Part shown: one piece after another, positions 16,601 through 60,207 of the stretch
Position numbering within the stretch: the first letter of the stretch is position 1
Layout: each line of letters opens with the position of its first letter
From: Takakia lepidozioides
Taxonomy: Eukaryota; Plantae; Bryophyta
DNA: 64,000 bases
Direction: 5' to 3'
Assembly (NCBI GenBank): GCA_030704615.1
Contig: CM060731.1
Coordinates: 89,528,001 to 89,592,000 of the forward strand
Program-made: the position numbers and the translations under genes
The notes under the pieces: generated by a model
The model's input: only the letters and a program-made list of their open reading frames with translations
What the model was told of the DNA's origin: nothing
Database searches by the model: none

Positions 16601-16639
16601 GGCAGAGTTGACCCAAACTTGGCAGTGGTACCTGCAGGT

Positions 16640-27800: not shown

Positions 27801-30800
27801 CCAGTCTCAATCTCCTCCAGGACAGGCTTGAGAGTAGGGTCCTCACGCACTTGAGCCATACGTTGCTCAAGTTGCTCCTTATGTGCTGGGTTTGTCAGGT
27901 TTGACAGCATGCCCGACATGGCAGGATCCTGGCGCAAGAAAAAACCAATAATCGGAAGAATCACACAACCAGCTTAGCAGGTGAGGGACACAGAATGTCC
28001 ATTAAGCCCAACACCTGGCATGATGTGAAAGGTGCCTCAACATAGACACTGCAGATTAATCCCAGAAAGCTTACAAAGATAGAAGTGGACAGTGTGCACA
28101 TCTCTTGTCATGAGAGGGAGAGAGAGAATGTACTCATAAGACGTTGTTTGCCTAGCCTTGTGGCCATAGACCCCGAGCCCAGTTTGGGCAGAAAAAGAGG
28201 GAGGGAGAGAAAGAGAGGCTTTTAACATCCACCTGCATAAGTGCATTTCCAAGGCGCTCAGCCATGGTCATGAACTGGGGGTTCTGCATGACTTGCTGCA
28301 TTGCATTGATGTACTGGTTTGTATCCAGCTGGGGAATGCCATCTTGACCCACGTTTTGCACACTGCGCTGAAGTTGCTGGGCCATGCTGTTAAAGGCAGG
28401 GTCTTTGGCAATCTGTTCTGCCATCTCCTTTATGCTCGGATCCTGGTAGGCAGTGATTCAGGCGATTATGAGACGGAGAAAGAGCTTCCTGGAGTCCCCA
28501 ACAGCGAATGTGTAACTTCCTGGACTACATCCTACAGCCAGCAAGACAGCAACACAACTTGGAAGAGAGCTAGTCATCCCACGTGAACAGTGCACAAAGA
28601 ATGGGCCTAGCTCTGCCATGTGTTCACCTCCTCAGCTCAGCCTGAGCTTGGCACCTCGATCAACGACTCACCCACTGACACCCAAATGCATAACTCTTAC
28701 ACTATACCTTACTGCAGAGCCTGACAAACCTCAAGTGGAAGATGGAATTACAATAACTTGGAATTTAAGAGTCCGCCTGTAAATGTGCACTATGGGTGAC
28801 TCAAACTAACTAGCTCATACTTTAGCTCTTACAAACACATTTTTTTCAGTGTCACTTCTCACACTGAAGAACCAGGGGGAAACCAAATAACAGTAAAAGC
28901 ACAAAGCTTTCCAGTGAAACTGCCTTTACAGTACACACTGCAAGTTTAGGCAAACAAGATTTACAATAGGTTAGGCGTATAAGTTAGTGCCAAACGGTAG
29001 ATATCAGGACATATCTTACTGCTTCAATTATGACCTATCATGTGTGTCTATTAACTAGCAACAAACGCATGATTCAGCTCAACTCAGATACTCGAAGATA
29101 AATGATACATTCTGGTCATTGCAGTTGAAGTAAGACTTTTATCGAGGATGGTAAGACTGAGCCTTATCTTGTTTTAGCTAGACCATAACGTTGGACCTTC
29201 ATTCTTTACCCTCAGGTGGTACTTATCTGCCACGAAGTTTGTTCTGCATTTTTTTTCCTTAGTTCTTTGTTTGTGTCTACTCTGCGGCAAACTCACGTTG
29301 AAAAATGAATCCCACGCACCACTGAACGAATTCCAGCTTTCCTGGAAACCCGCCCATGAGATTGCATGGGAATTAATCTACAGATCTCAGAATAGTAGTG
29401 ATTTTCCAAGACCTAAATTTTTCCACTTCTCTCTCTTCTTTTGCCATATTTCATTTTTTTAGTTGAAGCTTGTATTGAAGCCATGAAAGACCATAAAGTA
29501 ATGACTGCAGGCACTCTGAAGAAGAAGATAAGGAGTGAAACAAGCACACATTCCCAAACTTCAGATCGTTAGTACATGTTCAGACACAGCTTTGCAGCTG
29601 TCACATGACCCTAGCAATTTCCTAACAATGCAGCGCCAGCAAGATACAGCCTGCATTTGTCAGTCACCAGAGAATTACGAAAATCTACCTGTCTTAGACG
29701 GTTTTGCATCCCAGAAAACAAGGATGGGAGACTGATCTGACACAGTTTCCGCACGGAATGTGAGCCTTTAAAGGATGATGACTAATATGTAGATGTCCAT
29801 GCTCGTCATGTGGACCCAAGACTGTTGAGGGCCATTAGTCAGCATGGTGGACAGAGAATTTGTGGTGAAGCACTGTTGAGATCTAGATGGGAATGTGATG
29901 TAACATTGACATATTAGGAGTATAACTGTTTAGTCTCCGCTACAACACGAATTCCAACATACTTGAAGGTAGAAACCAGAACGCACATTCAAGAGTCCTG
30001 TCATTGCTGAAAAGTCAAATGGATTGGGATTAGCAGCATCATCCTCAGTCCCAGGAGCTGCATCAGTGGGAGCTACAGTGGCAGGAGCCTTCTCTTCCTC
30101 TGCCAGGGCTACCACCTTGCTTTCGTCCTCTTTCCCTGCACGCCAGTTACAAATCAACGCACAATCATAAATCCACTTGCAAAGTTTGGATACAATTCCG
30201 TTGAATGCACCAAGCACACACCCTCGTGTCTGCGACCTAACCTTCAGTTTGACAATCAAGGAAAGAAAATTGGGAGATATGGACCTGCTTCTAGGTGTTG
30301 TCATGAGCCCTTGATTAGCTCATATCAACACCACTTGCCAGGGTTTTCAAAGAAAATCTCCAACAGAAATCAGGTGAACCCTGGTAGTGCAGGACCAAAA
30401 ACACCATACCTCTTCACATCTAAACTCCATCAACCCTGTCGTGCATCAAGCAAATTGAAAGAGCTCTGAATCACCAACCATGGGCCTCAAGGAGAACATA
30501 GGACCGCAGTGTTGGACACCACTCCTCAGTCAGGGGGTTCAATACTAGCTAATGAGAATGACACCCAGTTTACACTCACCAAGTCTCTTCATATGGCCCA
30601 TTCCAAAACCTAGGCTTTTCCAGAAGAGACTTGAGTTTTCTACCGACCAAGGACCAAGCCGCCCATTCCAGGTAAGGTGAAACCAACTAAGAATATAGAG
30701 GAACGTCGGACTCGTGATCGGATAGACTGACATAGCCAGTTCAACAGGGACATCTCATACACAAAGATTTCTTCACAACGGGAAGGAGAGAGAGGAAGTG

Positions 30801-32237: not shown

Positions 32238-33788
32238 TCACAGCCCATATCTCCAGCCCGATCGATAATCACCGTGGCTGATCTTGTCCATTTCAAGAAG
32301 AAACCTGGGACCTAGCAACTCCACAATTTTGGAGTTCTTCAAAGGGCCTGAATTCGTGCCTTTGAAGCCTGGAATGGCATCTACCAGAGCAATCGTGGTT
32401 GCAACGGCTTCCTCGTCATCTCCAACTACAAAAACATGGAATGGATTTTGCACGCTGGGAAGATCCTCCAAGAGTTTCTGCAGAGAAAATCACGCCATGG
32501 CAGATCATGAGGAGAAAAGTCTATATGTCGATCACTTACATTTGAGTGATATCCAAGCAAGCAAAGACTCCGAACGATACGTATCACATCGAAGATATGA
32601 CCTAAGGAGTCCAGTAGATGTTGGGAGTTGAGAGCGAGCTCCAAACAACTCTTCACTCAGCACCTGGTCAAAAAAATTCGCCGAAGACAGAAGAAGAGAA
32701 ATGTTTAAGTGGTACAAATTAACATACCCAAAAGATAGACTTGAAGGCAGTGGTCCAGCGGGCAGGGACTCCCAATGCTTTTTGGTTGAGAAGTGGCGCT
32801 GACACCTGCCCCCACTGGCTCTCCTCGAAGAAGTACATCACATTGGTGACATCCACGATAATCTTGCCCTCCAAGTCCTTTGCAAGGGACTTCAACAGCT
32901 CTTCCCTTTCATCCAGTGGACCCTGTCCACATTCCAGCAAAACTCTTTAGGTCTAAGGATCCCGTCCAAGTAATAACGGTTACCTCTCGCTCGTCTACAG
33001 ACGATTCCATCTATGGACAAACAATTTCCATCGAAAGATCATATGAATAAAATTATGACTGTTTCAGAGTTTGGTTAAACAGCAGAATGGCTTCTTAACC
33101 CAGACGGTGAGGTTACTATCTCCGATATCTAGCACATTTTGCAATCCCTCTACAAACCATGACCATCTGTGCTCTATCTCAGTCCCATATGAGTACAAAC
33201 GTTGGCCAAATATCAATGTTGGAAGACCTGTGATCGCAATGTTCGACAGCAAAAGACAACTTTCAGGACACTTTGGAGGTACAACTTAAATATTCGCAAT
33301 TGGAGTAAAGCCACCGATTTGTACTCATTAAAAACAAGTAAATTGGAATGGAATTTCCCAGAGACGGCATTGTCCCGGATAGTGTGAATTCCAAAGAGCT
33401 GCGAGGAGGCATATCGAGTACGACGTCGATCTCTCCCAATCACAAAGTACCAGAGCTACCTTCAAAAGTGCTCTTTAATAGGATCGGCTCCACATCATAC
33501 CATCTTGCAAAACAAAACTCGGATAGGAGTGGGGGCAAGGCATACCGCAGGGGTCCAGAAGATGACGTCGCCAGCTGCAGCAGCCTCCTGGTTGGTGCCC
33601 CCCTTCACAGACGCCGATTGTGCTACTTTAGAAACATCCTCAGCAGTTTTTCTTCCTTTCTCAGCTTCACGAGATCCGACAAAGACAGAAATGCCAGCCT
33701 TTGCCAAATGACCTGCCAGCAGTTTGCCCATTCTGCCGGTTCCTGGAACAAATGCAACCGTCACTTTCTTCAGGTCCAGTGCGGCCAT
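32238..33788 (-). CDS. NADPH-dependent F420 reductase-like (FNO/NpdG, F420_oxidored family) oxidoreductase, 3 exons (about 33545-33788, 32727-32924, 32238-32477)
   Basis: Rossmann-like AFVPGTGRMGKLLA..LAKAG..VFVGSREAEKG, GGTNQEAAAAGDVIF, GKIIVDVTN, AFKSI, VFVVGDDEEA..VDAIPGF....GPLKNSKIVE. Introns have GTATG donors. Confidence 0.8.
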
Positions 33789-34663
33789 TGTGTATGGTGA
33801 AACGAAAGAGAGGGAGCTAGGTCAAGTAGACAATCAAGGGAAGCCGCAGACAGGGAGCGAGAAGGCATTGGAACTGAGAGTGGGACGACGAACTATTTAT
33901 GCATGTGGAGCGTGACTAACAGCTTCGCGAGAATCTTCCTGTTTTGCAGATTACAGCTTCGCGAGGATCTTCGCTGTTTTGCAGATTCAATGAACCTGCC
34001 CAAATATTATTCTATTGAGTACCCAGTGGTTTAGGGCTCAAATCCTGCCACTGTTTTGCAACATTCGGATTTGTCTAACCCTGGAAAAATGATGCCGCAT
34101 AGATGGCTCTACAAAACAGCTTCCTTATTTCCTGTTATCTGATTGGGTGTCTGAGAAAGTTGTGAGAGTTTGTGCTGGAGATGAAGAAGAAGTATATTTA
34201 AAGTGACACTTCAACGACAATTACAAATAACAAAACCAAACTTCTTGTTATATGTTTGTCCATATCTATGTAAAGACTAAAGACCAGGCCAGGATTTCTT
34301 AGTCCGAGAGGATGCCACCTTACGCTGCGGAAGGTTCCTCCTCTACCGGAGAAGAAGGCACGTCACAAGTTCATGCTCTTGTGAGTCAAGGAAATCTCAG
34401 CCATCAAACCTTTGCTGTTTTTTTTATGCAGGGTGAGGCCCTCGGTTGGGTAGCACGTGAGCACAAGGGAATATTAAGATGCCTTAGAAAATATTCTATA
34501 GCGAGACGATAATTTGCGAAAGTATTTCAATTGTTCATGTAAGCACTAATCACAACACGAAAAAAACAAGGCGTGACATACACATAGGCCCTGCGATCTA
34601 TCCAGATAGAACATGAATTTATAACTTTATTACATCTATATGATGTAAGATGTTGTGAAGTCT

Positions 34664-34905: not shown

Positions 34906-36356
34906 CACTACTACGTTTAAGGGGGGTTAGCGATGTCGGGACCCCGAGTGCGCCAGACACGACGACCCTCTTGCGACTGTTGCGCCGCGTAGGCGCCCGG
35001 CCCGGAAATAGCGACGTCTGCACGTCGCCGCAGCGCCGCTCCGGTGACGTTTCGTCAGCTTGCGATTCAGGTACGTCGCTGCAGTTGAGGCATGACCCCC
35101 AGCTTGCGACGTCCGGCGTCACACGTGCCCTCTGCGACGCTCCCGCAAGGCTGTGACGCCCGGGAATCACAACAATACCCCCTCACACTTAGGCGCGTGG
35201 GGAGCCAGCTCGTGCTGGGGTTTGCGACGTCCCAACGTCGCAGCAATGCCACAATGGCGACGTTGCGATTCCCCACAGTCGCAGGCCTGCTGGGGCGTCG
35301 CAAGTGCCCTCTTGCCTGGGGGTCTAGGATTGGGGATTGCTGCTACATGATAAATTTTTTTTTGCTGTGTTTTGTTCTGTGAATTCGACCCTTGCACCAC
35401 TACATCCGTACAAACTATTAGACCATATGCTTAATGACAGCATTTGCAATGCGTGTGCAAATTTTGGGAGTGAACAAAAATCATTTGGACTGAAAACCAT
35501 ATTTTCTTCCCTCATTTGCACTCCGAAATTGAGTTCTTTTCAACTTTATGCACTCTCCATAGAGAGTTCCGCAATAGTGAGTGAAGGAAACTCTTTGTTT
35601 TATTTTTATTTTTGTTTGGTCCAATTTTTTTCATGGATGTAGTGGTCTGGGGTTTGCATTCACAGAACAAAATAGAGCTAAAACAAAAATCATTGCGTAG
35701 GAAAAATCCGCAATCATAGATATTGTAAATGTAGGGGGTTGCGACCTCCATGGGTCACCTTGCGACGGTATTGCGACAGAATTGCGATGCCCCAACAGAT
35801 TTGCGACGGCGGGGAATCGCAAAATTGTCTTTTCTGTGTCTTTGCAAAGGTCATGGCAGAGGCCAAGCTGAATGGATCCATTGTTGCAAATCTTTTTAGT
35901 CCTCCTTCTGTGCTACAATATAAAAGACAAAGGGCAAGAAGTTGGGGTGGGGACACTAAGAAAGGAAAAGGGAAGGGCCATGGGATTAGAGGGTTGAGGG
36001 TAGATTGCTTTGGCAATGGCTTTGGCAACATTGTTGTCTTTCACACCAATTTTGAAGATTCTTTCTGTTGCATCGAGATCATGGTAACCAAATTGATTGA
36101 AGGGTTTCCAAGGGTAAGTCTTGGTCAGCATTTGTAGAACAAGCACCATGTCTTCCAACATTCTTGCCCTCGTACAAAAACTCAACAATCCTAGAGTCAC
36201 TTTTCGAGTCACAACTCCACTAAAATCATTCCTAGATCGCCACACCTACAAAGGATTTTTTTCATGGATTTTTCATTAATCAATCATAGAAATAAGCTAC
36301 ATGCATGTACATGTACAATCAATCGAAGGGATGGGTACAGTTATGTGCGAGAATTA

Positions 36357-39300
36357 TTATATAGCTTTGATTACGTGTCTAATCGACTTGAATATCAGCA
36401 TCTGGAGCTTCTTCGTCCTCATCAAGCTGCAAGTCTTCTTGCTCATCAGAGTCATTGTCATAAATGGCCTGGTCACCAAAAGGCACATCTGAATCATCTT
36501 CCACCTCGGTTTCAATGACCATGTCTTCATCTTCTTCTCCAACATCTGCATCTGATGGAGCCTCATCGTATAGGGTCCGGGATGCATTCATCGTATAGGT
36601 CCGGGAGCATGCTGTCCGGGGCGTCATCATTCTCTTGTACCCCCTTTATCCAACCTCGGCCAACATCGGCATCATCATGATCAGTCTCTTTCTCCTCCGC
36701 ATTTGCCTCGCCCCATGTAGATCCCCGACCATGATAGATACGTCTTCCTCTTGGCTGAGCATGCACAACCACCTTCCAATTTCTTGATCTGGAAAAGAAA
36801 ACTTGCTCCATGTCTGAAGACCATGAAAAATGCTCATCGGAGGGACGATGAGTAGACTCGAGCCTATCTGTATTGACGCGCATGAAACCACACTCGTCTT
36901 CCACTATTGTTGCGGATGGCCCCACAAGATGTGGCTGGAACCATCTTGCCTTGAAGATAAGAGGCTGGTGCCTTGTATACTAAAGTTGGAGTATGCTCTC
37001 AAGCTCTCCAAAATAGTTGAATGTGCTCATGGTAGGTCGTGTATCTCCCCTGCCCCACACGGAGTCTTGCCAATATGAGGCACACAAGCCAGAATCAAAC
37101 GTTGTTTTGCGCTTCATGTCAAGAGCACGAATGCGGAAATGACGACCATGAACCCAAACCGCCGTGTATGAGGTCGCAAATTGAGAGAGGCCCCTTGCAA
37201 TGTCTTGCACCAAATCTGAAACCACCTCACTTTTCGCAATGCTATCCTCTACTTCAGTCCGAAGCCAATGGCGGAATGAACTTAGAGGCTGCAATTCCAT
37301 GGGCAATTCTTGTGAAGGCACATTCTTACGCCGGCCCCTTGCTCGCGGAGCGCGTGTAGTCGCCCTTGCAAGATTCCGCCTCCACGCAACTGTCTCCTCA
37401 TGTCATTGCTGAACAAGGTTATTGTATCTTGCCTCCCACTCATGTATGGATGGGGTGTTCTTCAGTATGAACTCATGCGCTTGGTTAATCACCATGATGG
37501 GTAATTTTATCCTCTTTGAATTTTTGGGCAAAACGATGTCCTTGGTTCGTATATCCTCATCTTCTTTCCACATCGGAGGGGCTTCTTTATCCACCTTGTC
37601 AAATACTCCATGCAGTAGAACATAGCCTCTTGCAATGTATACCCCTCCGCCATGCTACCCTCCGGGTGTGCCATTTGTCTTACATGTGCTTTCAAAGTCT
37701 TCATGTATCGCTCAAGGTAGTACATCCACCAAGAATGAACGGGGCCGGCAATCGAAGCCTCTTCCACTAAGTGCACTACCAAGTGCACTTGGATATCAAA
37801 GAAGGAGGGAGGAAGGTGCATCTCCAACATACACATGACCACCGCCGCCTCCTTCTTCATGCGTGGAAAATCCGCTTCCTCCAGCTCTTTGGAGCAAATC
37901 CACCGGAACAATGCTCCCAATCTATAGACTGTCTCGCGAACCTCGGGAGTCAATGTCCCACGTACTGCAATGGGCAAGATGTCTTGCAATAGATTGTGGT
38001 AGTCCTGAGACTTCAAACCATGGACCCCGTCTTCGTTGAACTTCATACGGAGGGATGACCCATAACCAGTTGGTGTTCGGACAGCTCCTATGGTGGCTAT
38101 CACTTTCTTGTATTCACCGTACAACACCCTTTGGGTCCACACCATTTTCTTCGGCCCATAGATGGGACATGCGACCCTGCTCCTCAAGTTCCTTTCTAAC
38201 ACCGAGAGAATCTCCTTTCACAACCACTCCCTTCTTTGTCGGCGTGCCATGAAGAACACGAAAAAGGGACGAGCAAACATTCTTCTCAATATGCATGGGA
38301 TCTAGAAGATGACGAATCTTCAGGTCCTACACATATCCTCACCCACATATTCTTACACGTCTATTTTGTCGTGAAAGTGACAATGGAAATCATACAAAAC
38401 ATGCAATATCACATGCATGCATAGCAATATTGATGGTGTTTTTGTGGAATATGTACCGCCCAATATGGCAACTCGTAGAAGATTGAAAGTCGCTTCATGC
38501 CGGGCACCTCCACCTCACCGGACCCCTCCGGATGGGCCTCCTTCCATTGGTCTTCCCAAAAGTGCCCGGATGGTGTCACAGGTGGGGGACGTAACTCCAC
38601 TTTGCCATCAAACAAGTGTTTGTCTCTTCTTCTCCAATGATGGCTCATAGGAAGAAACTTGCGGTAGTTGGGATACACCATCTTGCGAAGATTGCTGGAG
38701 CTTTGTGCATCAAGTTCATCGCCACAATGCAGAGCGTGGTACCCTTTAGTGCTCAACCCCAAGCAAACAGTAAGTCATGTAGACATTCCGCCACATTAGG
38801 AAAGACAAAAAGTTTCCTTGTGCATCTACCCCACTACGGTGCAGAAGACTGTCGCCGCTACTTCAATCAATCCCAATCCTCATCAACCCCTGAGGTAAAT
38901 GTACGGGTTTCTCATGAGGAACATAATATACCTGGATAATCATGCATTGTCCAAAGCAAGATGTCTCTCATATGAAAAGATTGTCCGGCCATAGGGTCAA
39001 GTGAAGCATCCAATGCCTGGACCCCCCTCCATAACTCCTTCAATTCATCAACTAGAGGTCGCAAGTACGTGTCCATGTCTTTCACTTGTATTTTCCCTAT
39101 GAGACATTCACACCATTAATTGTTTCAATGCTCCACCATGCTAATTATACTTCATAATGAATGACACATACTACATGATTACGTCACTCATCAATCTTCC
39201 ATCGGAATTGCGCCAAAGAGAAGAAAATTAATGTAAAATCCAAAGTAATAATAAGCATGAAATAGGAACACTCACCCGGTACAATGGCAGCCAACATGAT

Positions 39301-40333
39301 ATGGCCTTTTTTTATTGAAAGATACGGAGGGATGTTGTAATTCACCATGGTCACCGGCCAAGTGGAATGACTACATGACTGGACAGAGAATGGGTTGACC
39401 CCATCCGAGGAGAAGCCGAGGCGGACATGTCGTGGGTCCTCCAAGAGAAAAGGCCACATCTCTTCAGTATGCCTCCATGCTTGTGAATCTTGTGGCCCGC
39501 ACACCTTTCCCGGGGGGCTCCGATGCGAGGCGTGCCATCTCATCAGTTTTGCCAATGAGGGGCTTCGGTAGTGTGCCTGTAGTCGCGGGATGATTGGAAA
39601 GTAGTGCATTTTCTGGCACCATCCCCATGTCGGCCCCATATCATAATCAGTGTCATTCATATCTCTAAGTAAAACCTTACGTCTTGTAGCGGTTGCAAAA
39701 AAGTAGAATGCAATATACAAGTGTATTGTGGCGCGGGTATACCTTGTGCGGGGCTTTCTTCCCTTGAACATCATCCCGATATCGGTCTTTGTTGCACTTT
39801 GGACACTTGGTGAGTTTTGCATCCTCTCCGTAGTACAGGGTTTTATCACATGGACATGCATGAAAAATCTTATAGCCCATCCCCACAGCATCCAAGGCTG
39901 CTCTTGCCTCTTTTCTTGATCGTGGCATTCTCGGCTTCAAATGTGGGGCAAGGATGTAGTCCGCAATAGTCCACATTATGGCGGACATACCCACATTGCT
40001 TATGCCAAACCGGATTTGCAAATTCAGCAACAACAAGATGGTTGAAAGTCTACTCACTTTGGCCCCTTCGTATAAGGGAGTTTTGGCCTCTTTTTCCATG
40101 TCATTCAAAGAGTTTGTGTCCTCATCTACCATCTGATGCATTAAGAGGTCCTCCATTGCTGCCACATCCTCATGCATAATTCCATTGTCATTGTTGTCCT
40201 CATCATCGGAGACCGCCATTTCAGATGGGATCGGGTCCCTTTGATACGCACCCCCCTCCGAAGGAACAAAATCCCGGTTCATGACAAGATCATGAACTTC
40301 ATGAATTAACGTCGTGGGGTTGTGGCCGGCATC
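36357..40333 (-). pseudogene. CACTA Tnp2/TnpD transposase with introns (putative first exon 42108-42444)
   Basis: PLYEGA..HACPCDKTLY..CPKC..RY, YFPIIPRL, DGVNPF..STWPV..NYNIPP, WTMHDYPG, PMHIEKNV, GLKSQDYHNL, FFDIQVHLVVHL, WMYYLERYMK, GSMAEGY, YFGELESIL, EQVFF, then an acidic tail. Confidence 0.92.
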
Positions 40334-40647
40334 CTAAGATGCCAAAAACAACCATGTCATTATCAGTTTCCATACATGGCGTTGTTCATTATCATACAAG
40401 ATAAAACCCAAAGTACACATTATACACACGAGGGGAATACATACATTGCTTCACCACATGAAGGAGACACTATATAATTCAAAATACCCAAATTCACATA
40501 TAACGTCCACCCAAACTCCCTTGAATATAGCATGAAAAACTGCATCCAAATACACATCAATGCCTATGTATATATATACACGGTGGAGGAAGCCACCTCA
40601 ATGTACAAAATGTCTTCCTACGTCCATCTACACATGATGAAAGTCGG

Positions 40648-41995
40648 CTAACGCCTAAAGTCATACTCTGCAAACAACTCCTCTCCAGCCCTAATAGTCC
40701 TCCTTGCACATGTCATCACAAAAGTGGGATGTTAGGGTCCAATCTACTATCCCCGTCATGGCGCTCATCCCAAAACACGTTGGCGGTGTGGCCCGGCGGT
40801 AAGGTAACTGAACTGTTGATGAGCCCAGCCACGTTGCCGTACACATCGGGTTTCCGTCACAATAAATATGGGCTTTGCGGCCCAAATTTCTCGCCCTTAC
40901 ATCATTGTCGTTCACAACAAGGATGTAAGGATGGATCAAGGACCCAAGGCCGTGTGTCTGCAATAATTGCCACTCCCGGTGGGTGTACTCGGCCCAAAAT
41001 AGGGGAACAAATCCACAGAATCCTCTCCTCCCCCCAAAACTACATCCTCCATCAAAAAAAGTCCGCGACCCATACTAGGGTCCATTGCCTCCATCACGCA
41101 ATACATGCGACCCCAAAAAAGAAAGGGCTCACCCTCGGGAATCGGAACTGGACAAGGCACAAGACATTGGTAGAAATGGGGTTGGACTCCCATCGTGAAT
41201 AGCTCCCTAGCACCACGATGATGTATGGTGCCGTCATCAGGCCGGCGAAGGCGCGGACCAACCGTGCGAAACAACTTCGGTCCACCTCTCCTAAGGGGCG
41301 CGCCCGTCCATCACTTCGGGGGCCCTTCTCCCGGAGTGGGACCTAGTGATCCATCGGTCCCAGTCATACACAGTCCCCAAGGTGGTGGGATCCATCCGGG
41401 TTCTGCCGGAGGACCCGGATACGGACTCGGTGGCGGCTGTGGTCTCGGCAATGGAGGGGAAGGGAAATGTAGGTTGGTATGAGGATCTCGCGTGGAGGTA
41501 GTACTGGCCGAGATGGCCGGGATGGCGATGGTGATGAGGAAAGTACATGTACAATAGGAGGAACGGACGATGCGGATGATGGTGATGATGGGGGTGCCGA
41601 TGTCGAGGATGTCGAACTCGGACTCGGTGGCGGCTGTGGTCTCGGCAATGGAGGGGAAGGGACACGTAGCCGGTCGGTATGAGGGACCTCGGATGGCAAT
41701 GGTGATGAGGAAAGACCATCTACAATAGGGGAACGGACGATGCGGATGATGGTGATGATGGGGGTGGCGATGTCGAGGATGACGAATGTGTGTGCGTAGG
41801 TGACAAGCACCTAGCCCGGTGCCCAAAAATAAAAAAACACGCATCGTACCCCGCTACCTCACAAACTGCATCTACGTCATGTTGCGAGAAAAAAATGTTC
41901 ACATCCGGAACGGGGTGGGGCTCGCAAGAAGGAAGAAACCCGCATCGGTATGCCTCTTCAGCAAAAAAATTGCGAGCTTGGACATCAAGACGGGG
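40648..41995 (-). pseudogene. SET-domain (histone lysine methyltransferase-like) ORF with Pro/Ser-rich N-terminal linker, frameshifted
   Basis: Joining three frameshifts in the domain gives MGRGLFLMEDV..LFPYFGPEY..PYILVVND..IYCDGNP.YGNVAGLINSS..ANV..HFVMTCARRTIRAGEELFAEYDFRR*. This follows the SET motifs GxGLF, YxG, GNxARFINHS and AxRxIxxGEELxxxY in order. Confidence 0.8.
41420..41785. repeat. Tandem duplication of about 197 bp encoding the Pro/Ser-rich linker
   Basis: GGACTCGGTGGCGGCTGTGGTCTCGGCAATGGAGGGGAAGGGA at about 41423 and 41620. Confidence 0.85.
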
Positions 41996-43413
41996 CTGCA
42001 AGATGCATGATATGAAATGCATCAATACTCAATTCACAAACGCGAGGTTTCATTAGATATAGTACTTTTAATTGAGGAGTACGTGAGAAGATATATGGAC
42101 GACTTACCTTTGCTGCATCAGCAATCTCGTACTTGGCGTAATGTTTTTGCACAACATGGGTCACCGCATCATCGGTGTGGTCCTCCCAACGGTAGTGTGC
42201 CCAACACCAACTGCACCAACACTCAATCTTGGGGAGGCGGTCCCGGCGGGGTCTCCCGGGGCTCGTGCCTCTGGACTTGGCGGCCTACGACTCGGGGTGG
42301 TGGCCGTGGGGGCAAAGCTGTGCGGACATGGCGATGCCGCCTAACTCGTAGACGAGGCGAACGTGCTGTCTCGCCCTCAGCAGGTGGTTGTGGCACAGCC
42401 GGCAACGAATCCTCAAGCGTGACACGTCGATAAACACGCGGCATGACCTAGCACGAGCGAGAGGTAGAGTACCGTATTGTGACCCACTGTAACCTCCGGA
42501 GGGTTACACTCCCAACCCTTGGAAAAACTTGAAAAAAAAAACCCTACAAACGTAAAGCCATATGTCCCACCCCACCAAAAAACAAAAACCCTAAAAACAA
42601 AACTATATTGCAGCTAATCCTAAACTAACTATATTATAACTAAACCCTAAACAAAACTATGTAACCCTAAAACCCCTAAGAGCCAAAGACCCAAAAACCC
42701 AAATGATCCTTGCAAAACCCCATAACCCAAAAAACCAAAAAAAAAATAAAAAAAATGAGAGGCCTCTTCAACTCACCTCTGCGCCAGATCTGCAACTGTC
42801 GTGCGACGTCCGTGCGACGTCCCCCTGAGGCAGCGACGCTCGTGCGATTCCCCAACGTCGCAGCGGATCCCCCTCCTGCCAAGGTGGCCGCCCTTCTCTC
42901 CCTTCTCTCTCCCCTTCGCGAAGGCGCCTGATCGCCGCCGAGGTTTTTCCGGTGGGGTCGCCACATTGGCGCGCCGCGGCTGCACCGACCGCCTCTCACT
43001 CCCCCTCTCAATCTCTCTATCTGATCTCTCTCTCCCTCACCCTCCTCCTCTCACTCTTCCTCCCTCCCCTCCCTCCATCCCTACTTTGTTTTTTTTTTGC
43101 TCTCGAGCTCTCCCGGGCGCAACTACCCCCGCGTGCCGGAGCATTTTCTGGCGGCGGTGACGCAACACTGACGCGCCACGGCGTTCAAACCCGCGCGCGC
43201 CCTCTCTTTCACTCTCCCTCTCGCCCCCTAATCCCTCTCCCTCACTCTCTCTCTCCCTCTTCTATGTCGTTTGTTTTTTTGTTGTTGTTGTTTGAGCGAG
43301 CTGGGAGCGCGCCCCCGTGACCTACTGGTGAGCGCCAGCGAACGCAAGCGCCGCGGGAGGGGTCCGCCAGCGTGAAGGAGCTTCAGCGTGAGGAGAACTT
43401 GCCCTCCCTCTCC

Positions 43414-46400
43414 TTCTCTCTCTCCCTCTCTCCCTCTCCCTCTATAACTTTTTGGATTTCATTTGGCCCTGATATTTACTATTTGCTTCTTTCATCTAAA
43501 CTGGATGAAATACATGAATAATGCTGACCTATTCTAAAAATCCAAGAGGTAGTAATTTGTACCATCATTAATGATGGCAGTTACTAAACCTAAGCCTATA
43601 CCGTAACCCTAAGATACCTTTTTATGGGATATCATCCATTAACAAAGTGCATCTCTTTCAAATATGATTTTTCATCCACCCTGGATGAAAAATCGGGAAG
43701 TTGTGCCCTAAACGGGCCGACATATTTCACAGCACAGAACTCGTGCTTCTATGATCCTTGATGATGCGCCATGTAAACCTGCTCCCTTGCGGCTACATGG
43801 TACTCGTGATGGCTGACTTTTGGGATGCGCAATGGCAGATAGACAGATTCTTCTCTGGCAGTCGACAATGCAGTGATCGCTCTGCTCAGAAATTTATGAT
43901 TCTGTTAAATTCACAGCGGCGCTCTTACTCCTCGTTGGGAAGTACTCCACCCCTACTTAGCCACAGATTACATGTTGCTCTCTTTCTGTATGAGCTGCTC
44001 TCTTCTACTTGATTGCGTTCTGCTGGAGACATCTACTGGACGCCATGGCGCAGGGCATACCACAAACACTTAAGGTTTTTTTGAGTGTACCCTTGCTTGG
44101 ATTACGATTTGTACATGCTTTTAGAATTCAACACTGACATGGATAGCAACTGTGAAAACCTGCCACTCACCTGATGCATCCTCACTAACACACATCTCTA
44201 TGTGGTGGTTTTTGGGACGGGCACAGGTGAGGGTCTTCACTTGTCTTGAATTATTGAAGCTTGCGAGTCTGATTCATGCATAAGGGATTGCTGCTACCGC
44301 CTGAAGCTGCTGATACCAACTGTTGTTTCAAATCTGCCATCTTGCTGCCTCAAATCGGCTTCAAGTCTGCTCTAATGAGGATCACCTTCTTACTCCTTAT
44401 CCCTGTTTTTGGTTCTTGATAACCACTTCTATACGTTTTGGAGTTAAGACACACAAGGGACTTCATAGAAAACAAAATCTCTGTTGAAAGCTCTGGCTGT
44501 TTTCAACAAAGGTACATGGCTGCGGTTATAGCTCTGGCAGCATGGAAACTAAGCTCTGAAATGAAACACCATGGCCTGGCTCTGATGGATCAGAAGATAG
44601 ACCTTGTGATAACAAACATTCTTCAAGGCTCTTATATCACCACTATTTCATTGCATGATAGGGGACAATGGTTTCTGAGTTCATTTCTTTAACTAGCAGA
44701 GCTTGTTATGAGGCCCTGGAATACCACTCCAGGCCCATATCTACTTGAGGGTACTCAGCCCTATGTTTTGTTTTGTTAGAAATCTGGCTTATGACTTGGC
44801 ACTGAAGCACCTTCAGACCTGACCCCATCAGTATTTTGGTTTTCAAGAACTGCTTGCTGGTAGATGTTGTGCGCTTCCTACCTTATACTATGGCAGAGTT
44901 TTGATCTTGAAGTCCTGCAATGACTATCCAGGCTTACATATACCTGAAAAAAACTGAGCCCCGCTTCTACTTTATGAATCTTGCATGTGTCTTGGCACTG
45001 ACAGATCAGTTTCACGCCTACACAGGATGTTGTTTAGGAAGATGAATGGCTCAAGAACTAGATTATGTAAGGCTTGACCCATGTCAACAACAAAAAATGA
45101 ATGCTTTATGTCAACTTATGGGGCTTTCAGGATATGAATGACCAGGAATCCCGCCCTCCCACCCTGTTTTTTCAGATACCCTGAAAAGTTATAAGATGTT
45201 CAAATGAGTTGGTAAAAGGGTGTTAGATGATGCCCTGTAAAGGGTTGCTTTGTCTTTCAATGACAATGACCTTAGTGGTCTTGTCCATGTCTTGACATGA
45301 CATGTATATCTTCTCTCTCCCTCTTTTCCATTTTTTATTGTTTGAGCGCGGGAGTGTGCCCACGCGACCTGGTGGCGGAGCGCCAACGGAACACCGGCGT
45401 GAAGGAGCTGCTGCGCAAGGCGCCCAACTGCAGGTAAGCAGCCATGCATTTCTGATCTTCATAGTGAGAGATTTCAGTGAGAGTTTGGGTTCCACGGAGT
45501 AGACTGTGGAATCCCAACGGATCTCATAGTATATAGGACAATAGAAGAAGTGTTCTTCAGTTTCAATTTCATGGAGAGAGAAGATATACATGTCATGTCA
45601 AGACATGGACAAGACCACTAAGGTCATTGTCATTGAAAGACAAAGCAACCCTTTACAGGGCATCATCTAACAACCCCTTTTACCAACTCATTTGAACATC
45701 TTATAACTTTTCAGGGTATCTGAAAAAACAGGGTGGGAGGGCGGGATTCCTGGTCATTCATATCCTGAAAGCCCCATAAGTTGACATAAAGCATTCATTT
45801 TTTGTTGTTGACACGGGTCAAGCCTTACATAATCTAGTTCTTGAGCCATTCATCTTCCTAAAACAACATCCTGTGTAGGCGTGAAACTGATCTGTCAGCG
45901 CCAAGACACATGCAAGATTCATAAAGTAGAAGCGGGGCTCAGTTTTTTCAGGCATATGTAAGCCTGGATAGTTATTCCAGGACTTCAAGATCAAAACTCT
46001 GCCACAGTATAAGGTAGGAAGCGCACAACATCTACCAGCAAGCAGTTCTTGAAAACTAAAATACTGATGGGGCCAGGTCTGAAGGTGCTTCAGTGCCAAG
46101 TCATAAGCCAGATTTCTAACAAAACAAAACATAGGGCTGAGTACCCTCAAGTAGATATGGGCCTGGAGTGGTATTCCAGGGCCTCATAACAAGCTCTGCT
46201 AGTTAAAGAAATGAACTCAGAAACCATTGTCCCCTATCATGGAACGAAATAGTGGTGATATAAGAGCCTTGAAGAATGTTTGTTATCACAAGGTCTATCT
46301 TCTAATCCATCAGAGCCAGGCCATGGTGTTTCATTTCAGAGCTTAGTTTCCATGCTGCCAGAGCTATAGCCGCAGCCATGTACCTTTGTTGAAAACAGCC

Positions 46401-47466
46401 AGAGCCTTCAACAGAGATTTTGTTTTCTATGAAGTCCCTTGTGTGTCTTAACTCCAAAACATATACAAGTGGTTATCAAGAACCAAAAACAGGGATAAGG
46501 AGAAGCCGATTTGAGGCAGCAAGATGGCAGATTTGAAACAACAGTTGGTATCAGCAGCTTCAGGCGGTAGCAGCAATCCCTTATGCATGAATCAGACTCT
46601 GCAAGCTTCAATAATTCAAGACAAGTGAAGACCCTCACCTGTGCCCGTCCCAAAAACCACCACATAGAGATGTGTGTTAGTGAGGATGCATCAGGTGAAT
46701 GGCAGGTTTTCACAGTTGCTATCCATGTCAGTGTTGAATTCTAAAGCATGTACAAATCGTAATCCAAGCAAGGGTACACTAAAAAAAAACCTCGAGTGTT
46801 TGTGGTATGCCCTGCGCCATGGCGTCCAGTAGATGTCTCCAGCAGAACGCAATCAAAGTAGAAGTGTTCACAGATAGAGAGTAGCTCATACAGAAAGAGA
46901 GCAACATGTAATCTGTGGCTAAGTAGGGGTGGAGTACTTCCCAACGAGGAGTAAGAGCGCCGCTGCGAATTTAACAGAATCATAAAATTTCTGAGCAGAG
47001 CGATCACTGCATTGTCGACTGCCAGAGAGGAATCTGTCTATCTGCCAATGCGCATCCCGAAAGCCAGCCATCACGAGTACCATGTAGCCGCAAGGGAGCA
47101 GGTTTACACGACGCATCATCAAGGATCATAGAAGCACGAGTTCTGTGCTGTGAAATATGTCGGCCCGTTTAGGGCACAACTTCCCGATTTCTCATCCAGG
47201 GTGGATGAAAAATCACATTTTAAAGAGATGCACTTTGTTAATGGATGATATCCCATAAAAAGGTATCTTAGGGTTACGGTATAGGCTTAGGTTTAGTAAC
47301 TGCCATCATTTATGATGGTACAAATTACTACCTCTTGGATTTTTAGAATATGTCACCATTATTCATGTATTTCATCCAGTTTAGATGAAAGAAGCAAATA
47401 GTAAATATCAGGGCCAAATGAAATCCAAAAAGTTATAGAGGGAGAGGGAGAGAGGGAGAGAGAGAG
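43414..47466. repeat. Long inverted repeat: arms about 43414-45320 and 45573-47466, loop about 250 bp
   Basis: Arms are reverse complements over about 1.9 kb with scattered substitutions and two 20-30 bp indels. The ORF track shows mirror peptides at 43758(+) and 47122(-). Confidence 0.95.
45430..45575 (-). pseudogene. LINE ORF2 C-terminal zinc-binding fragment in the inverted-repeat loop
   Basis: EIETEEHFFYCPIYYEIR..FHSLL..YEDQKCMAAYL, resembling the post-RT cysteine/histidine region of non-LTR elements. Confidence 0.55.
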
Positions 47467-47819: not shown

Positions 47820-50800
47820 AGAGGGAAGATATACATGTCATGTCAAGACATGGACAAGACCGCTAAGGTCATTGTCATTGAAAAGACAAAACAGCTCTTA
47901 CAGGGCACCATCTACATTCTCTTTCATGTTTACAATCTCATTGAATACCCAATTACATTTCAGGGTCTCTGAAAAAACAGGGCGGAGGGTGGGATTCCAG
48001 GTCATTCATATATGAAAGTCAACCATAGTAACCATCATCATCTCAAGAATCCTTTTAAACTCATTCCAAAACCAGATTGCAGTTTGTTTTGAAGATGATG
48101 TTTTATAACCAAGATATAAGCAAGATTCTAAAAGGAAGAAGAAACAACATTGTAGAGCCCCCTTAAGCAGGTATAGGCCTAGAATGGTATTTTAAGGCCA
48201 CATAAAGTATTTCGCCAAGGTGAATAGCAGCTCAGAAACCCAGTTTGTTATCAAGCATGAAACCAAAATGATATGAGGGCCTTGGATAATGTGTGTTATC
48301 TATCAAAGTCCTATCCTTTTGATCCATCAGAGTCATACCAAGAGTTCTCATTTCGGAGCCAAGTATCAAGGCAGTCAAGTAATAACTGCTATTTTGTAAT
48401 CCACTTGTATCCTTCATAGCTAAACTCCTACACATGCAAATGTGGTTGTAAAAAACCATAAACCTGGGTAAGGAGAGAAGCAAATCCTCATTGGAGCAAT
48501 CTTGGAGCAGGTCTGAAGGCGGCATGGTGGCAGTTTGAAACAGCAGATGGCATCAGCAGTATCCACACGTGCAAAGAACAAGGAACTGCAAGCTTCAAGA
48601 ATCAAGACAAGTGAAGACCCTCACCTGTGCCCCGTCCCAAAACCACCACATAGCGCGGTGTTGTTAGTGAGGATGCAGCAGGTAAGTGGCAGGTCTTCCC
48701 AGTTGCCTATCCATGTCAGTGTTGATTCTAAAGCAAGTACAGATCACAATTCAAGCAATGGTAAACTCAAAAAACCTTGAGTGTATGTGGTATGCCTGCG
48801 CCATGGCGTCCAACAGATTGTCTCCAACAGAACGCAATCAGAGTAGAAGCGTTCACAGCTAGAGAGTGGCTCATACACGAAGAGAGAGCAACAAGTAATC
48901 TGTAGATAAATAGGGATAGAGTACTTCCCAACAAGGAGTAAAGCGCCGCTGCAAAATAAAGAACCATGAGTTCCTGATCAGAGCAATCATGGCTTTGTCG
49001 TCAGCCATAGAAGAATCTGTTTAACCACCCACCGCGCATCCCAAGAGCCGCAATCACGAGTACCATGTAGCAGCAGGGGAGCAGGTTTATACGGCGCATC
49101 ATCAAGGTTCACTGAAAGCACGAGTTCAGTGCTTGAAGTGTGTCGGCCTGCTTAGGGCAAAACTTCCCGATTTTTCATCCAGGATGGATGAAATATCACA
49201 TTTTACCAAGATAGGATTTTGTCACTGGATGACATCCCATAGAAATGTATCTTTTAGGGTTATGGTATAGGTTTAGGTTTAATAACTGCCATCATTTAAT
49301 GATGGTAGTTTTATTATTCTCTTGGATTTTATAATAGGTAACATTATTTATGTAGATCATCCAGTTTAGATGAAAAAAATAGATGTAACTCTAGCTTTCT
49401 GTATATTAAGTTTCATCATCCAATAATAAAATAAAATCATCCAGATTTGGATAAAAAAGGCAGGGATGAAAAACTAAACCTAACCTCAAAAGGTTAAGGC
49501 CAGATGAAATCCAAAGATTTATAATAGAGGAGAGGGTGAGAGAGAAGGGCTAGAGCGTGGGAGAGAAGAGGGAGCTCATGCAGGTAAAAAAAAAAAAAAA
49601 AAAAAAAAAAAGGGCGTGTTGGAGGTGAACTGAGCAGCTGCTCCCTCTCTCTCCTCTCTCCTCTCCCTCTCCCCTCTCTCCACATCATGATGGGACAGAG
49701 GAGATGAGGGGAGAGGGAGAGAGAGGACTGTTGAGGGGAAGGTTTGTGTGGGGGGGGGGGGGGGGGCCTGCTGCCTCCCCTCCTATCTTCCCACCCCCCC
49801 CACCATTTTTATTTTTTTTTTCCCCCTTAACAGTCCCTCTCTCTCCCACATCCTGATGGGACAGAGGGAGACAGAGGGATAGAGGAAGATACTATGGCTT
49901 GTCGGGACATGGACAGGACCAAACATGGCCATTGTCAATTTTTACGACAAATCAACCTCATGAAGAGTCAAACTCCACTTCAAATCAGATCTTACGATGA
50001 CCTCCATTACATTTCAAAGACAAAGAATCTACCTGGTAGATTTCAATGACAAGAAAATACGGGTGGGGAGGGTGGGATTACTTAGAAGATCCCCTCATTA
50101 TAATAATCCAGCTTTATATTCTAAGGAACAGTATGCTAAACAAGTGTTACCAACCTGTTTTTATGCCTGTTTTAGAATTATAAGCTATGGTGGCATCTAA
50201 GCAAACAATTAAATGTTTACTTATATCATGCAATAGTACTGCTCATCTGGAACCCAAAAGTTCCAGCTATTTTCCATTAATCACACAACCGGGATATTTA
50301 ATCATCTGGTTACTTGATAAGATAACCAGTTTTTTTAATAACAACAACCCAGAGCTTATCTGCTACATTTTTAGAACTTCTTGTAATCATGACATAGAGT
50401 CAAAACTCATTGCATTGTTTAGTAAGCTTGATTTCCCATAACTGCTTTCTACTGCAGTGTTCTGTATCAGAATATGCCATAGCTAGTAAAAAACAAACAG
50501 CTATCTTTTTTGTAACATAAAATCCAGAGCCATGCTGTAGGTATGATTGTTAATCAGTCTTTGATTACCAAGCAACAACAGAGGCTTCTCTTTAAAACAA
50601 CCAGACCTGGTTTAGGTCTGGGGTCATTATGTTACAACCTTGACAAGGTGTTTGCAAGGCAAAAAAAAGACTTTTAATGAAGTTCAGAAAGGCCATAGTT
50701 CCCACACTTGTTCAAACCCTGGTGTTACACAGGTTTTGAATCGATAACATCTGAAAAAATTATATTGTGTAGCCTGATATTTTTATCAAGCCAGAGCAGC

Positions 50801-52789: not shown

Positions 52790-55700
52790 TGACAGCTGTT
52801 GTGCACCTAAGCATCGTGCCACAACATACATCGCTATCCACCACACAATCTAAGCACACAATCCTAGAAAACTATACCACAATCGCCGCCCTTGCCGGTG
52901 ATTAGATCCCTCTAACACCAGATAGCTCACAAGTATCCATCCCAATAAGATCATCGCTTGGTCATCAATCGCCCAAGTCCCACTATCTAAAGTCAATAGA
53001 TCAAGAGGCCGGGTGCAGAAGTAGCCCCATCGTTACTCGTCTTCCTCCAATCCATGGCTTCAATTGGGTGTCATGGCATCGAACTCCCGTTAGCTAGACC
53101 TTGGATCACTTGTCAACCTCGCCACTGTCATGCCCCACTACCTCTGTCCCAAGGCATCGTGGACATAACCATTCTCCACTAGGAACCTCCTCAAGTGGCT
53201 GTGTCAAACATCCCATGTGCCACCCCCTTGAGCATTTGTCACACACCAACATGGTCGCGGCACCACCAGCATGCCCACATAGCATGCAATGCAACCCTGA
53301 AGGTACCACTGCAAGGTTGGGATCTATCATCCCATCCACATGTGGAAGGTGACATGGCACACATTGTTGCACATGGTCCTTCCATACCATGCCATCTCGA
53401 CCCTCCGGAATCAACACTCCTGAAGGCAACACCTCCCGGACCCTTAGAATCACACGACCTGCTGTGACATCCCAAGGTCGTAAGCGCTGTCTGTTGCAGA
53501 TACACATAGTCCCCAAGATGGAAACGCCAAACACCTGGCTGGTATACCCCTCCACGTATAATGACGTACCTCAATGTGTCTCGGTGTTGGGCAATAGCAA
53601 GGTTCTCAAAAGCCATAGGCATGACTATCTTGAACAACTCTGCCCGTTGGGCACATGCTTGTGTCCACACATCCGGATCATCACAAGTTTGAGGACTACT
53701 GCAGTCTCCCTACGAATAGATGTAGGCAAATCTGGCTCTCGGCCAAAGAGAAGGAAATAAGGCGAGAACGAGGCAAGTGATGCTTGCTTGCTAAACCTGT
53801 AAACTATGGCCAACCAAGGTAGCTGAAGGTCCCAATCTCTCAAGTGTCCCTTCTGCAAGCCATACTTGCGCAAGCCTCTCGCTGACTGTTTGCACAACCC
53901 TCTTGGCCAAGCCATCAGCCTTGGGATGATCCCGAGAAGTAGTGCGGTGATCTATCAAGGCTCGCTCACACAAAGCCTGAAACTCCTGAACTCCCCCAAG
54001 AACTCTCTCCCCTGGTCCGTGAGTACCTCGGCTGGAGCACCAAATTGGTTAACACTCAATCTAAGAATGCATACGCAACCCCCTTCACTTGCCTTTCTCA
54101 GGCAATGCCACCAGTTCAATCCATTTGGAAATGTTCCACCATCACCAGCACATACTTGTTATGGTGAATCGTTAGTAGCAATGGGTCTGCGAATTCGAGA
54201 CTCCAACGATAGCCCAAACCCATAATGGGTAAATGATGCAATTGTGGAGTAGGTGCATTGAAAGAAGCCTGCACTCTATCACACACCATGCACCTTGCCA
54301 TTAACTGTTTCACATCCGTGTGCATGCCCCGCCACCAATACTGTCCTTGTAGCAAACTATGAGTGCGCCGCACCCCAAAATGACATCCCACCTCCTCATG
54401 GGCATGGCGTACCAATCGCGCTCGTTGTGTTGGAAGAGGCACATCCTCACTCCATCCCTCCCCCATACTCGGTGGTGAGTTCGGTCCCCTCCCCGCTTGA
54501 ACCTCTTGGCTCGTTGTAGGATCCGATCTCTCTCCTTAGCAGTCACACTTGACCATCCTCTCACCTCCATCACCCGGATCGTAATCTCATCGCAGCCATC
54601 GCTCATCTTGTTATTTCCTTAAAACAAACAGTCCATCGTATCAAAGTTAGATCACACACTGGCATCACTGGCAATGAGGCCGCTGACCTCCTCGCCCAAC
54701 AAAGAGCTGCTCAACCACCAGTGGAACCCTCGCCGGATCCTATACATGTCGCGCATACCCACCCTTTCTGGTTCATCCACCCTGTTCCAGGCCCACCAGA
54801 CCCTCAACCGGTTCGTAATCTCTCAACCACTCTTACCCGAGAAACTAGCAAATAAGCCTCAACCTCTGTCAGCCATAATAAGCTGCACATCCAGAAATGG
54901 ACGCAGTCTTTGGTCCTCCACCATAGATTATCTAACCACTTTTGGTACACCAAAACCACAAACAGATGCGCAAACAAACCCTCAAATTTCGGTATGCCCA
55001 ATACATGGGCCACCAGCGTAAACACATTTTTTGGCCCCACCTCTTCACATCCCCAAACTGCCCGTTATGTGCTCACACCCACTCGGCCCGAGACACCTGG
55101 CCCCCACCTCCAGCCAATGTACTCACCCCACCATCCACGGCCTTCGAGTCACCCGACAGAACCAGGCCGTTTGGCACATACATAAACTCCTATTACGTCG
55201 GCCTGAAACTCGGTGGTTCTCACTTATTAATGTCGGCACCTATCCTGGCTACTCCCATGCTCCTGCCGACCACCCACATCATGTAAATGCCCTGCCATAC
55301 TATGCCCAGACATACTACTAGTTTTGGGGTTGCCTGTCAATTCCCCGCCTCCTCACGCCCCCTCTCCAAATCTTACAATACATTTTATTGAGTTCACTTA
55401 TTGTAATGACCAGTACCCCAGCTCTTCTACGCTTGAAAACCGCCAGAAATACGCTCCACTCCTTCTTGCACTTCGCCGCCGAGGATGGTCAATCGGCCCT
55501 CTGACCGTTATTACAGCCGGTACAAGAGGCGGCATCCACAATGCTAGCATCTCTGCTCTCCACACAAACTTCGGCATCCCTATACCCCCCATTCACAAAT
55601 GCTTTAAAGCAGTCCACCTAACTGCACTTCGTTCCCTCACTACCATTATCACCAACAAACGACAGCTTGAATCCACTCTCTCCGCGGCCCCTAGGCACCA

Positions 55701-58015: not shown

Positions 58016-58060
58016 CCGCTCGAGCTTTTCTATGTTTTGAGAGTTTTGTAAGTGCGCACT

Positions 58061-59572: not shown

Positions 59573-59935
59573 CACTACTACGTTTAGCGGGGTTTAGCGA
59601 CGCCGGGACCCCGAGCACGCCGGACGCGACGACCCTCCTTCGACTGCAGCGCCGGGCAAAATTGTCCGAATCCAATGGCGGAATGAACTTGGAGGCTGCA
59701 ATTCCATGGGCAAATCTTGTGAAGGCACATTCCTACGCCGACCCCTTGCTCGCGGAGCGCATGTAGTCGCCCTTGCATGGTTCCGCCTCCACGCAACCGT
59801 CTCCTCCTGTCGTTGCTAAACAAGGTTATTGTATCTTGCCTCCACTCATGTATGGATGGGGTGTTCTTCAGTATGAAACTCATGCGCTTGGTTAATCACC
59901 ATGATGGGTAATTTTACCCTCTTTGAATTTTTGGG
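59573..59935 (-). mobile_element. Internally deleted derivative of CACTA family B
   Basis: Terminus CACTACTACGTTTA matches 34906 and is fused after about 90 bp to sequence matching the transposase at 37260-37527. Confidence 0.85.
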
Positions 59936-59939
59936 TTTC

Positions 59940-60207
59940 GGCACCATTTTCCTAGGTTGGGCCCGAAAATGGCTAAGTCCCAAAACTGACTGGGCGCGGA
60001 ACTAGAAAAATGGCGCCGAATTTCCGGTTGCGGTTCTAGCCACCCTAGGGACTTAGCCATTTTCGGGGCCCCGAACTGGAAAAATGGCGCCATTTTTCCA
60101 GTTCGGGGCCAAAAATGGCTAAGTCCCAGATCTGACAGGGCGCGGAACTGGAAAAATGGCGCCGAATTTCCGGTTGCGGTTCCAGCCACCCTAGGGACTT
60201 AGCCATA
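59940..60207. repeat. Nested palindromic/tandem repeat block
   Basis: Two units of about 100 bp (AAAATGGCTAAGTCCC..GGGACTTAGCCAT) flank a perfect 44-bp palindrome at 60067-60110. Confidence 0.85.

Follow-up and report, generated by a model that had tools for sequence, protein, structure and literature searches.

A SET-coding exon nested in the transposase gene of a CACTA/EnSpm element from Takakia lepidozioides and its likely use as an alternatively spliced accessory exon

Introduction

Alternative splicing generates both TnpA and TnpD in the CACTA transposon En/Spm of maize and in EN/SPM3 and EN/SPM7 of Arabidopsis (PMC13547354; bioRxiv 10.64898/2026.08.24.746577; here and below, statements refer to the accessible part of each source). 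Arabidopsis EN/SPM families moreover switch between such a spliced layout and one with split genes (PMC13547354). TnpA is a helix-turn-helix (HTH) DNA-binding regulator, and TnpA-like proteins are reported to be confined to flowering plants (bioRxiv 10.64898/2026.08.24.746577), which leaves open what CACTA elements use elsewhere. In this study we analysed a stretch of 64,000 nt from the bryophyte Takakia lepidozioides (contig CM060731.1 of assembly GCA_030704615.1, positions 89,528,001 to 89,592,000), referred to as the window. It carries a CACTA/EnSpm element on the minus strand whose transposase gene harbours a SET-coding exon (41995-40648) in its first coding intron. This copy of the element is dead. 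In the family it belongs to, splicing connects the first coding exon with the transposase and likely also, in a second isoform, with the nested SET exon, and on the whole we favour the view that the accessory SET protein would methylate lysines in the chromatin of the element.

The locus resembles En/Spm in its CACTA end, its Tnp2/DUF4218 transposase, a single transcription unit with a non-coding first exon, and subterminal repeats. Two spliced products, one of them accessory, would be a further likeness. Unlike in En/Spm, the accessory exon encodes a SET domain and precedes the transposase core, lying within the first coding intron, and neither Pfam nor the reading frames downstream of the transposase gave an accessory protein with the tandem HTH domain of TnpA.

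SET domains have been described in several DNA transposons. The red-algal Plavaka elements, which also belong to the EnSpm/CACTA superfamily, carry SET in the accessory gene PAG2 (bioRxiv 10.1101/2025.02.11.637652). PAG2 is however a separate gene encoding an adenine methylase-SET fusion in elements of 17-19 kb with three accessory genes, whereas the SET exon described here sits within a transposase gene of the Tnp2 type and comes with no methylase. Helitrons and HarbingerS (bioRxiv 10.1101/2025.02.11.637652) as well as oomycete MuDR (PMC12730594) have likewise incorporated a SET gene. They represent other superfamilies in other hosts, and there SET is described as an accessory gene, not as an alternative exon sharing the N-terminus of the transposase. 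SETMAR combines SET and a transposase-derived part in one gene with multiple isoforms, but is a domesticated primate host gene in which SET is fused to an inactive mariner (PMC8704517). By contrast, the element studied here is a multi-copy transposon, and by our model SET and the transposase core end up in mutually exclusive products. An element-encoded factor altering the chromatin of its own element, as proposed here, has a counterpart in the VANC anti-silencing proteins of VANDAL transposons, which are experimentally supported, originate from a separate gene and have no SET domain. To our knowledge none of the plant anti-silencing factors (VANC, TnpA) contains a SET domain.

The accessible text on CACTA exon structure in flowering plants (PMC4158355) holds nothing on SET. 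Our literature search, outside of which were Repbase reports, subscription journals and the supplements of two preprints, turned up no report of a plant CACTA element with a SET exon inside its transposase gene. DNA transposons with SET are known, and so are accessory proteins that En/Spm makes by splicing; the combination of the two is in no paper found.

Results and discussion

One coding exon faces two splice acceptors

The region 39600-43450 was compared with public contigs from four of ten listed runs. Two runs (X5 and X1) were guessed to be DNA and two (X8 and X9) to be RNA. The layout of the 5’ half of the gene is as follows:

42777..42902, minus strand: non-coding upstream exon without ATG, with four CGTCGC copies; from the X8 contig joint, 5’ end undefined
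42448..42776, minus strand: intron in the 5’ untranslated region (UTR), probable donor at 42777; from the joint 42449/42802
42108..42447, minus strand: first coding exon, ATG at 42444, with a low-complexity start followed by a CxCxxC...H piece; common to both isoforms in our model
41996..42107, minus strand: GT..AG intron of 112 nt of the putative SET isoform; in X8, record 21 stops at 41997, leaving 11 unaligned letters
41813..41995, minus strand: conserved 61-residue block opening the SET exon straight after acceptor 41995; three helices predicted with low confidence
41350..41790, minus strand: Pro/Ser-rich linker (P+S 0.56) with an internal duplication (41619-41786 versus 41422-41616)
40648..41190, minus strand: SET domain with N-terminal flank, motifs GRG, YFG, GNxAGLINS and EELFAEY; stop codon 4 residues past the last Tyr
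40334..40647, minus strand: AT-rich stretch (GC 0.38), likely the 3’ UTR of the SET isoform and the 3’ part of the intron of the transposase isoform
39743..40333, minus strand: first transposase-specific exon, 197 codons, open, acceptor at 40333; from the RNA-like joint 40332/42107 and the end of X8 record 17 at donor 39743

An original prediction made from the letters of the window had placed an ATG at 42444, a donor (AAG/GTAAGT) at 42108 and two acceptors at 41995 (TGCAG/CCC) and 40333 (CTTAG/GAT), the latter in frame with the transposase. All of these are present in the sequence. Of the 31 YAG sites in the 1774 nt intron that follows the donor, the near acceptor 41995 comes first; its use would leave an intron of 112 nt.

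The transposase arm is directly seen. Record 18 of X8 joins 42107 to 40332, corresponding to a splice from 42108 to 40333, with ends CT..AC and 102 letters on the short side. This joint is present in one of the two RNA-like runs and in neither DNA run. Record 17 of the same run stops at donor 39743. Further upstream, record 22 connects 42449 with 42802, and 45 other letters lie in between. As this joint lies in an RNA-like contig, the exon that had been taken for exon 1 is in fact the second exon. The SET exon accordingly sits in the first coding intron, and an intron in the 5’ UTR precedes it.

The SET arm is supported indirectly. X8 record 21 aligns from 41744 to 41997 and leaves 11 letters over, so that the contig ends on the AG of acceptor 41995. 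A splice from 42108 to 41995 predicts exactly two matching letters past 41995 followed by mismatches at 11 of 11 positions, which fits the end of this record. The proven acceptor at 42447 exhibits the same overhang of two letters (record 22 ends at 42449). In simulations an unspliced copy was clipped in the manner of record 21 in 0.5-2.8% of cases at 11% divergence, in 4-11% at 20% and in 12-23% at 30%. Moreover, a distant family shares the start of the SET exon from the acceptor codon on. Its first 61 codons match the related protein P0021 without gaps from the first codon onwards (score 51, reached by 0 of 5000 shuffles), and all six members of the P0021 cluster have a Gln, compatible with CAG, directly before this block. 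It is the combination of a contig ending on the acceptor AG and a block starting at the acceptor codon that argues for the SET junction. The predicted model of the block has three helices (pLDDT 56.5); Foldseek found no fold match for this low-confidence model. The Pro/Ser linker, originally expected to follow acceptor 41995 immediately, comes only after the block.

Several points weigh against this interpretation. No run is recorded as RNA, and the RNA nature of X8 and X9 is a guess. The junction from the coding exon to SET is itself unread, as the 11 leftover letters of record 21 are not displayed. Record 18 spans the junction to the transposase without a contig break, and no SET branch is visible for that copy. 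An in-frame ATG is located 9 codons upstream of acceptor 41995 in the window and the relatives read Met-Gln-Pro-Arg at their start, so in either case a stand-alone SET start is possible. These observations would suit a SET gene that is independent of the transposase, nested in its intron and equipped with a promoter and start codon of its own, the Cys/His exon being used by the transposase only. The protein calls are in line with this (six of six related proteins start with Met-Gln-Pro-Arg), the transposase junction is the only one read, and the Arabidopsis families show that spliced and split-gene layouts do alternate. On the other hand, the candidate ATGs differ in position (-9 codons and -2 codons), yet in both families it is the acceptor codon that opens the conserved block. 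The break in the RNA-like contig falls on the AG, and the contig does not run into the intron, and a promoter would have to fit into only 112 AT-rich bases. We consider a separate nested gene rather improbable and the junction from 42108 to 41995 likely to be real. What had been predicted as one exon with two products is thus partly supported, for the transposase arm by a joint in one RNA-like run, and for the SET arm indirectly by the contig end and the conserved exon start; of the two junctions named at the time, one was found in X8 and the other was not read.

Downstream, an X8 contig crosses the SET stop codon up to 40606 and continues in diverged sequence in which no poly(A) site was seen, and none of the joints listed for X8 connects the SET exon with 40333. 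Both observations fit an alternative last exon. We reject the reading of SET as a cassette exon that continues into the transposase frame, since the SET frame ends in a stop codon and the joints listed for X8 include none of this kind. Several bins lack X8 contigs, intronic (40374-40502) as well as within the SET exon (41019-41405), and this was not counted as evidence. Contigs of the SET region occur in both X8 and X9, i.e. in two studies, the X9 contig being a diverged SET end with 38 aligned letters.

Both acceptors have GCATCTT just before the AG (40334-40342 and 41996-42006). This may be chance or the trace of an acceptor duplication at the arrival of the SET exon.

The SET exon is broken in the window and conserved elsewhere

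The SET exon had been described as an open reading frame. In the window this frame is closed. Compared to public contigs the exon has at least seven single-base deletions (40727, 40847, 40987, 41340, 41378, 41482 and 41729), the first three of which fall into the SET domain part, and one further break between 41200 and 41312 is needed for an open frame, making eight in all. X5 record 11 has a sixth gap that accounts for the latter (1599 letters over 1593). Ten of the 12 listed indels (out of 35) are single-base losses, and the exon frames of three nearby host genes that were inspected are open. This fits unpolished long-read errors in repeats. The transposase points in the other direction, towards true decay rather than assembly error, as a TGA of the window copy reads CGA in a second copy at 59664-59935.

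Eight frame breaks, together with a lesion in the GRG motif of an X5 contig, could suggest a passively captured cargo of the Pack-CACTA type that decays in the intron. The deletions at 40727 and 40847, however, are missing from X5, X1 and X8 contigs. The SET exon is found in many copies and sub-families, and the SET end persists in diverged sub-families from X5, X8 and X9. The SET domain and the 61-residue block are both present in intact relatives at 32-46% identity, and no pre-SET or post-SET domains of the host type accompany the exon. Passive cargo is therefore very improbable. That SET is an integrated part of the element, as proposed originally, is supported by its many copies and sub-families, the RNA-like contigs from two studies and the motifs retained in relatives.

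A minimal SET domain with unusual motifs

Relatives were collected by a HMMER search of 1.84 billion representatives, which gave one relative; a profile search from that yielded six proteins, and their clusters provided the intact members. The four SET pieces of the window align in order with one of them, P0016. A read-through of 451 residues, with X at the breaks, shares 46% identity with P0016 across 178 aa (E 6e-44) and 32.5% with P0011. Pfam on the four window pieces gave no SET in three of them and E 0.085 in the fourth. The Pfam SET cut-off (PF00856, 22.4 bits) is passed by P0016 (24.4 bits), P0018, P0013 and P0009, all within 22.7-24.5 bits, and P0011, P0015 and P0017 stay below it. In the ESM Atlas P0016 groups at a score of 0.96 with small SET clusters, some of them from giant viruses and haptophytes, which is no evidence on origin, and an 87-aa piece of the window scores 0.84 at most.

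Other searches yielded little. Sequence searches of the PDB with two SET pieces gave no match, and the family profile gave two weak ones (E 0.53 and 0.61). Word-index protein searches with the N-terminal SET piece and the first transposase exon returned no matches among longer proteins, which is weak evidence. Scans for the locus in metagenome, viral and genome contigs found no confirmed relative.

For the motif comparison P0001, P0002, P0007, P0008 and P0012 were left out (out of frame or off-frame calls). GxG, the Asn and the terminal Tyr are preserved across three families at 32-46% identity, and the family retains EL as well. Signature motifs of SET methyltransferases are NHS/CxxPN and ELxF/YDY, and a very short post-SET has been tied to a lack of activity in PRDM constructs (PMC3178901).

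Measured against this, some features speak against the favoured reading. The family reads NSS for NHS and ELFAEY, such that the His and the Asp are not kept. The post-SET segment, which closes the substrate groove in SET methyltransferases, is nearly absent: between the Tyr and the stop codon there are 4 residues in the window copy, 3 in P0016 and 7 in P0011. The AlphaFold model of the intact relative P0016 reaches a pLDDT of 32. The X5 contig lesion is a Gly to Arg change in GRG. The SET isoform might hence be spliced as proposed but be no histone methyltransferase: a pseudo-enzyme, a methylator or binder of the transposase, or a splicing decoy that lowers transposase output. NSS and the short post-SET are in favour of this, and the near acceptor, as the first YAG past the donor, could be used by default. 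However, a decoy would not need GxG, the Asn and the terminal Tyr to be kept in three families at such identities. Regarding a pseudo-enzyme, a solved bacterial SET protein that aligns weakly with the family has NFS at the position of the NHS motif. This protein is presumably active. Altogether we see a small but real chance for these possibilities. From the residues retained, SET enzyme activity is plausible, and the SET isoform is probably an enzyme, most likely a lysine methyltransferase. A histone as its substrate is conceivable and somewhat short of an even call.

The Cys/His exon, probably shared by both products

The original prediction counted one frameshift in the coding exon. It is in fact five bases short relative to other copies (216 letters over 211 in X8 record 18, 601 over 596 in X5 record 14). 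With the five bases restored it comprises 342 nt and remains in phase 0. Two insertions are placed by contigs at 42196 and 42290, the three others are unplaced. When these three were placed at random, CxCxxC was kept in 1239 of 4884 open placements, so the indel data leave more than one frame for the Cys residues. In X8 the alignment of a diverged contig reaches 42242, shortly upstream of the Cys motif, and the sequences differ past that point. This hints at that half of the exon as the conserved part.

The Cys/His piece had been likened to the transposase-associated domain of CACTA elements, which we take to be PF13963. A Pfam search with the 58-aa piece, incomplete and in a frame that is itself a reconstruction, matched no family at E<=10, this domain included. 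That the exon, as a putative zinc-binding N-terminus, tethers the SET isoform to the element's own DNA is doubtful, and it is equally conjectural that it targets the CGTCGC repeats or the transposase complex.

The element: ends, transposase and state of the copy

The Tnp2 and DUF4218 transposase comprises five exons from 40333 to 36379. The features downstream of the first transposase-specific exon and the repeat beyond the 5’ part are:

39276..39612, minus strand: transposase exon with Tnp2 core (DGVNPF, first catalytic D); PF02992 E 1.3e-24, splice sites
38932..39096, minus strand: transposase exon ending in HDYP; motif and splice-site inspection
38457..38774, minus strand: transposase exon, second part of Tnp2, 5’ boundary approximate; PF02992 E 2.2e-9
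36379..38326, minus strand: last transposase exon with DPMH motif, DUF4218 with catalytic E (ERYM, 37713), weak DUF4216 and acidic tail
34906..35300, minus strand: 3’ terminal repeat (CACTA...) and subterminal region with nine CGTCGC copies (35011-35296); motif count, repeat comparison
43415..47465, no strand assigned: foldback of 4 kb with arms of ~1.9 kb (95.5% alike) and a 252 nt loop, without long frame; self-comparison

Pfam supports a transposase of the D-D-E type (Tnp2 or Transposase_21, PF02992, E 1.3e-24; DUF4218, PF13960, E 8.1e-33). HDYP is presumably the second catalytic D, and the assignment of the catalytic motifs as a whole is our assumption. The last exon contains frameshifts and in-frame stops near 37403 and 36980 in the window copy. 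With these lesions the copy is dead.

The terminal repeat at 34906 begins with CACTA (CACTACTACG) and represents a single end only. The flanking repeat has a paralogous empty copy at 57586, which diverges from it precisely at 34906. No matching 5’ terminal repeat was found in the window; the foldback at 43415 occupies its place and cuts off the 5’ end of the element. A related single arm is located at 48420-49378. The motif CGTCGC clusters at both element ends, with nine of its 22 window copies in 35011-35296 and four in 42803-42856. Two further copies lie in a second CACTA 3’-end fragment (59573-60206), in which a terminal repeat (84% alike) abuts a 272 nt transposase piece (94.5%), followed by palindromic 121 nt repeats.

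Between the transposase stop and the 3’ repeat the longest frame has 110 codons and no TnpA-like Pfam match was found. This indicates that there is no separate downstream TnpA-like gene.

Other features of the window

A Ty3/Gypsy-like remnant (10750-16500, plus strand) includes a piece of a C5 cytosine methylase (13768-14322, PF00145, E 1e-12). Gypsy elements bearing Dnmt3 were described in the charophyte Klebsormidium (PMC5890265), and the methylase-bearing remnant in this plant may widen the range known from there. Just upstream of it lies a degenerate tandem array of 10 nt units (9450-9965, core GGCTGTGA). Another Gypsy-like remnant (52876-54547, minus strand) is 74% alike to 15361-17055 and has a PHD finger past the integrase region (53109-53570, PF00628 E 2.3e-10). 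Host genes or pieces thereof are a SNO/PDX2 glutaminase (21134-22490, PF01174), an ankyrin-repeat gene that we take to be AKR2-like (28152-30300), an F420-oxidoreductase-like gene (32240-33790, PF03807) and, by eye, a PPR-like fragment (4458-4964). Two adjacent open frames of 174 and 134 codons (58052-58978, plus strand), located between the empty-site repeat and the second CACTA fragment, have no Pfam match.

Proposed model and implications

We propose the following sequence of events. A single promoter would drive a transcript starting with the non-coding exon and continuing with the coding exon 42447-42108; both exons and their joint are contained in one RNA-like contig. Splicing to the near acceptor 41995 would result in a protein of ~565 residues comprising the Cys/His exon, the 61-residue helical block, the Pro/Ser linker and SET, with the end of its transcript probably set by a poly(A) site in the intron. 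Splicing to the far acceptor 40333, the junction read in the RNA-like contig, gives the transposase. The splice choice would then set the ratio of accessory protein to transposase. The SET isoform may fill the role of TnpA in En/Spm of flowering plants, given that the stretch from the transposase stop to the 3’ repeat holds no second gene.

Parts of this model differ in standing. The architecture of one unit with two outputs is likely. An extended version, in which a clade of plant CACTA elements swapped TnpA for an active minimal SET methyltransferase that is produced from the near acceptor, brought to the element ends by the Cys/His exon and writes a histone mark keeping the element active, is unlikely in full. 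If true, one splice choice would toggle the element between chromatin marking and self-excision.

The literature searched has no plant transposon with a histone methyltransferase-like domain of its own. The family comprises many copies and is backed by RNA-like contigs, which makes the splice switch as well as the enzyme directly testable. A SET isoform that shares the first coding exon of the transposase is a concrete candidate for what CACTA elements use outside flowering plants.

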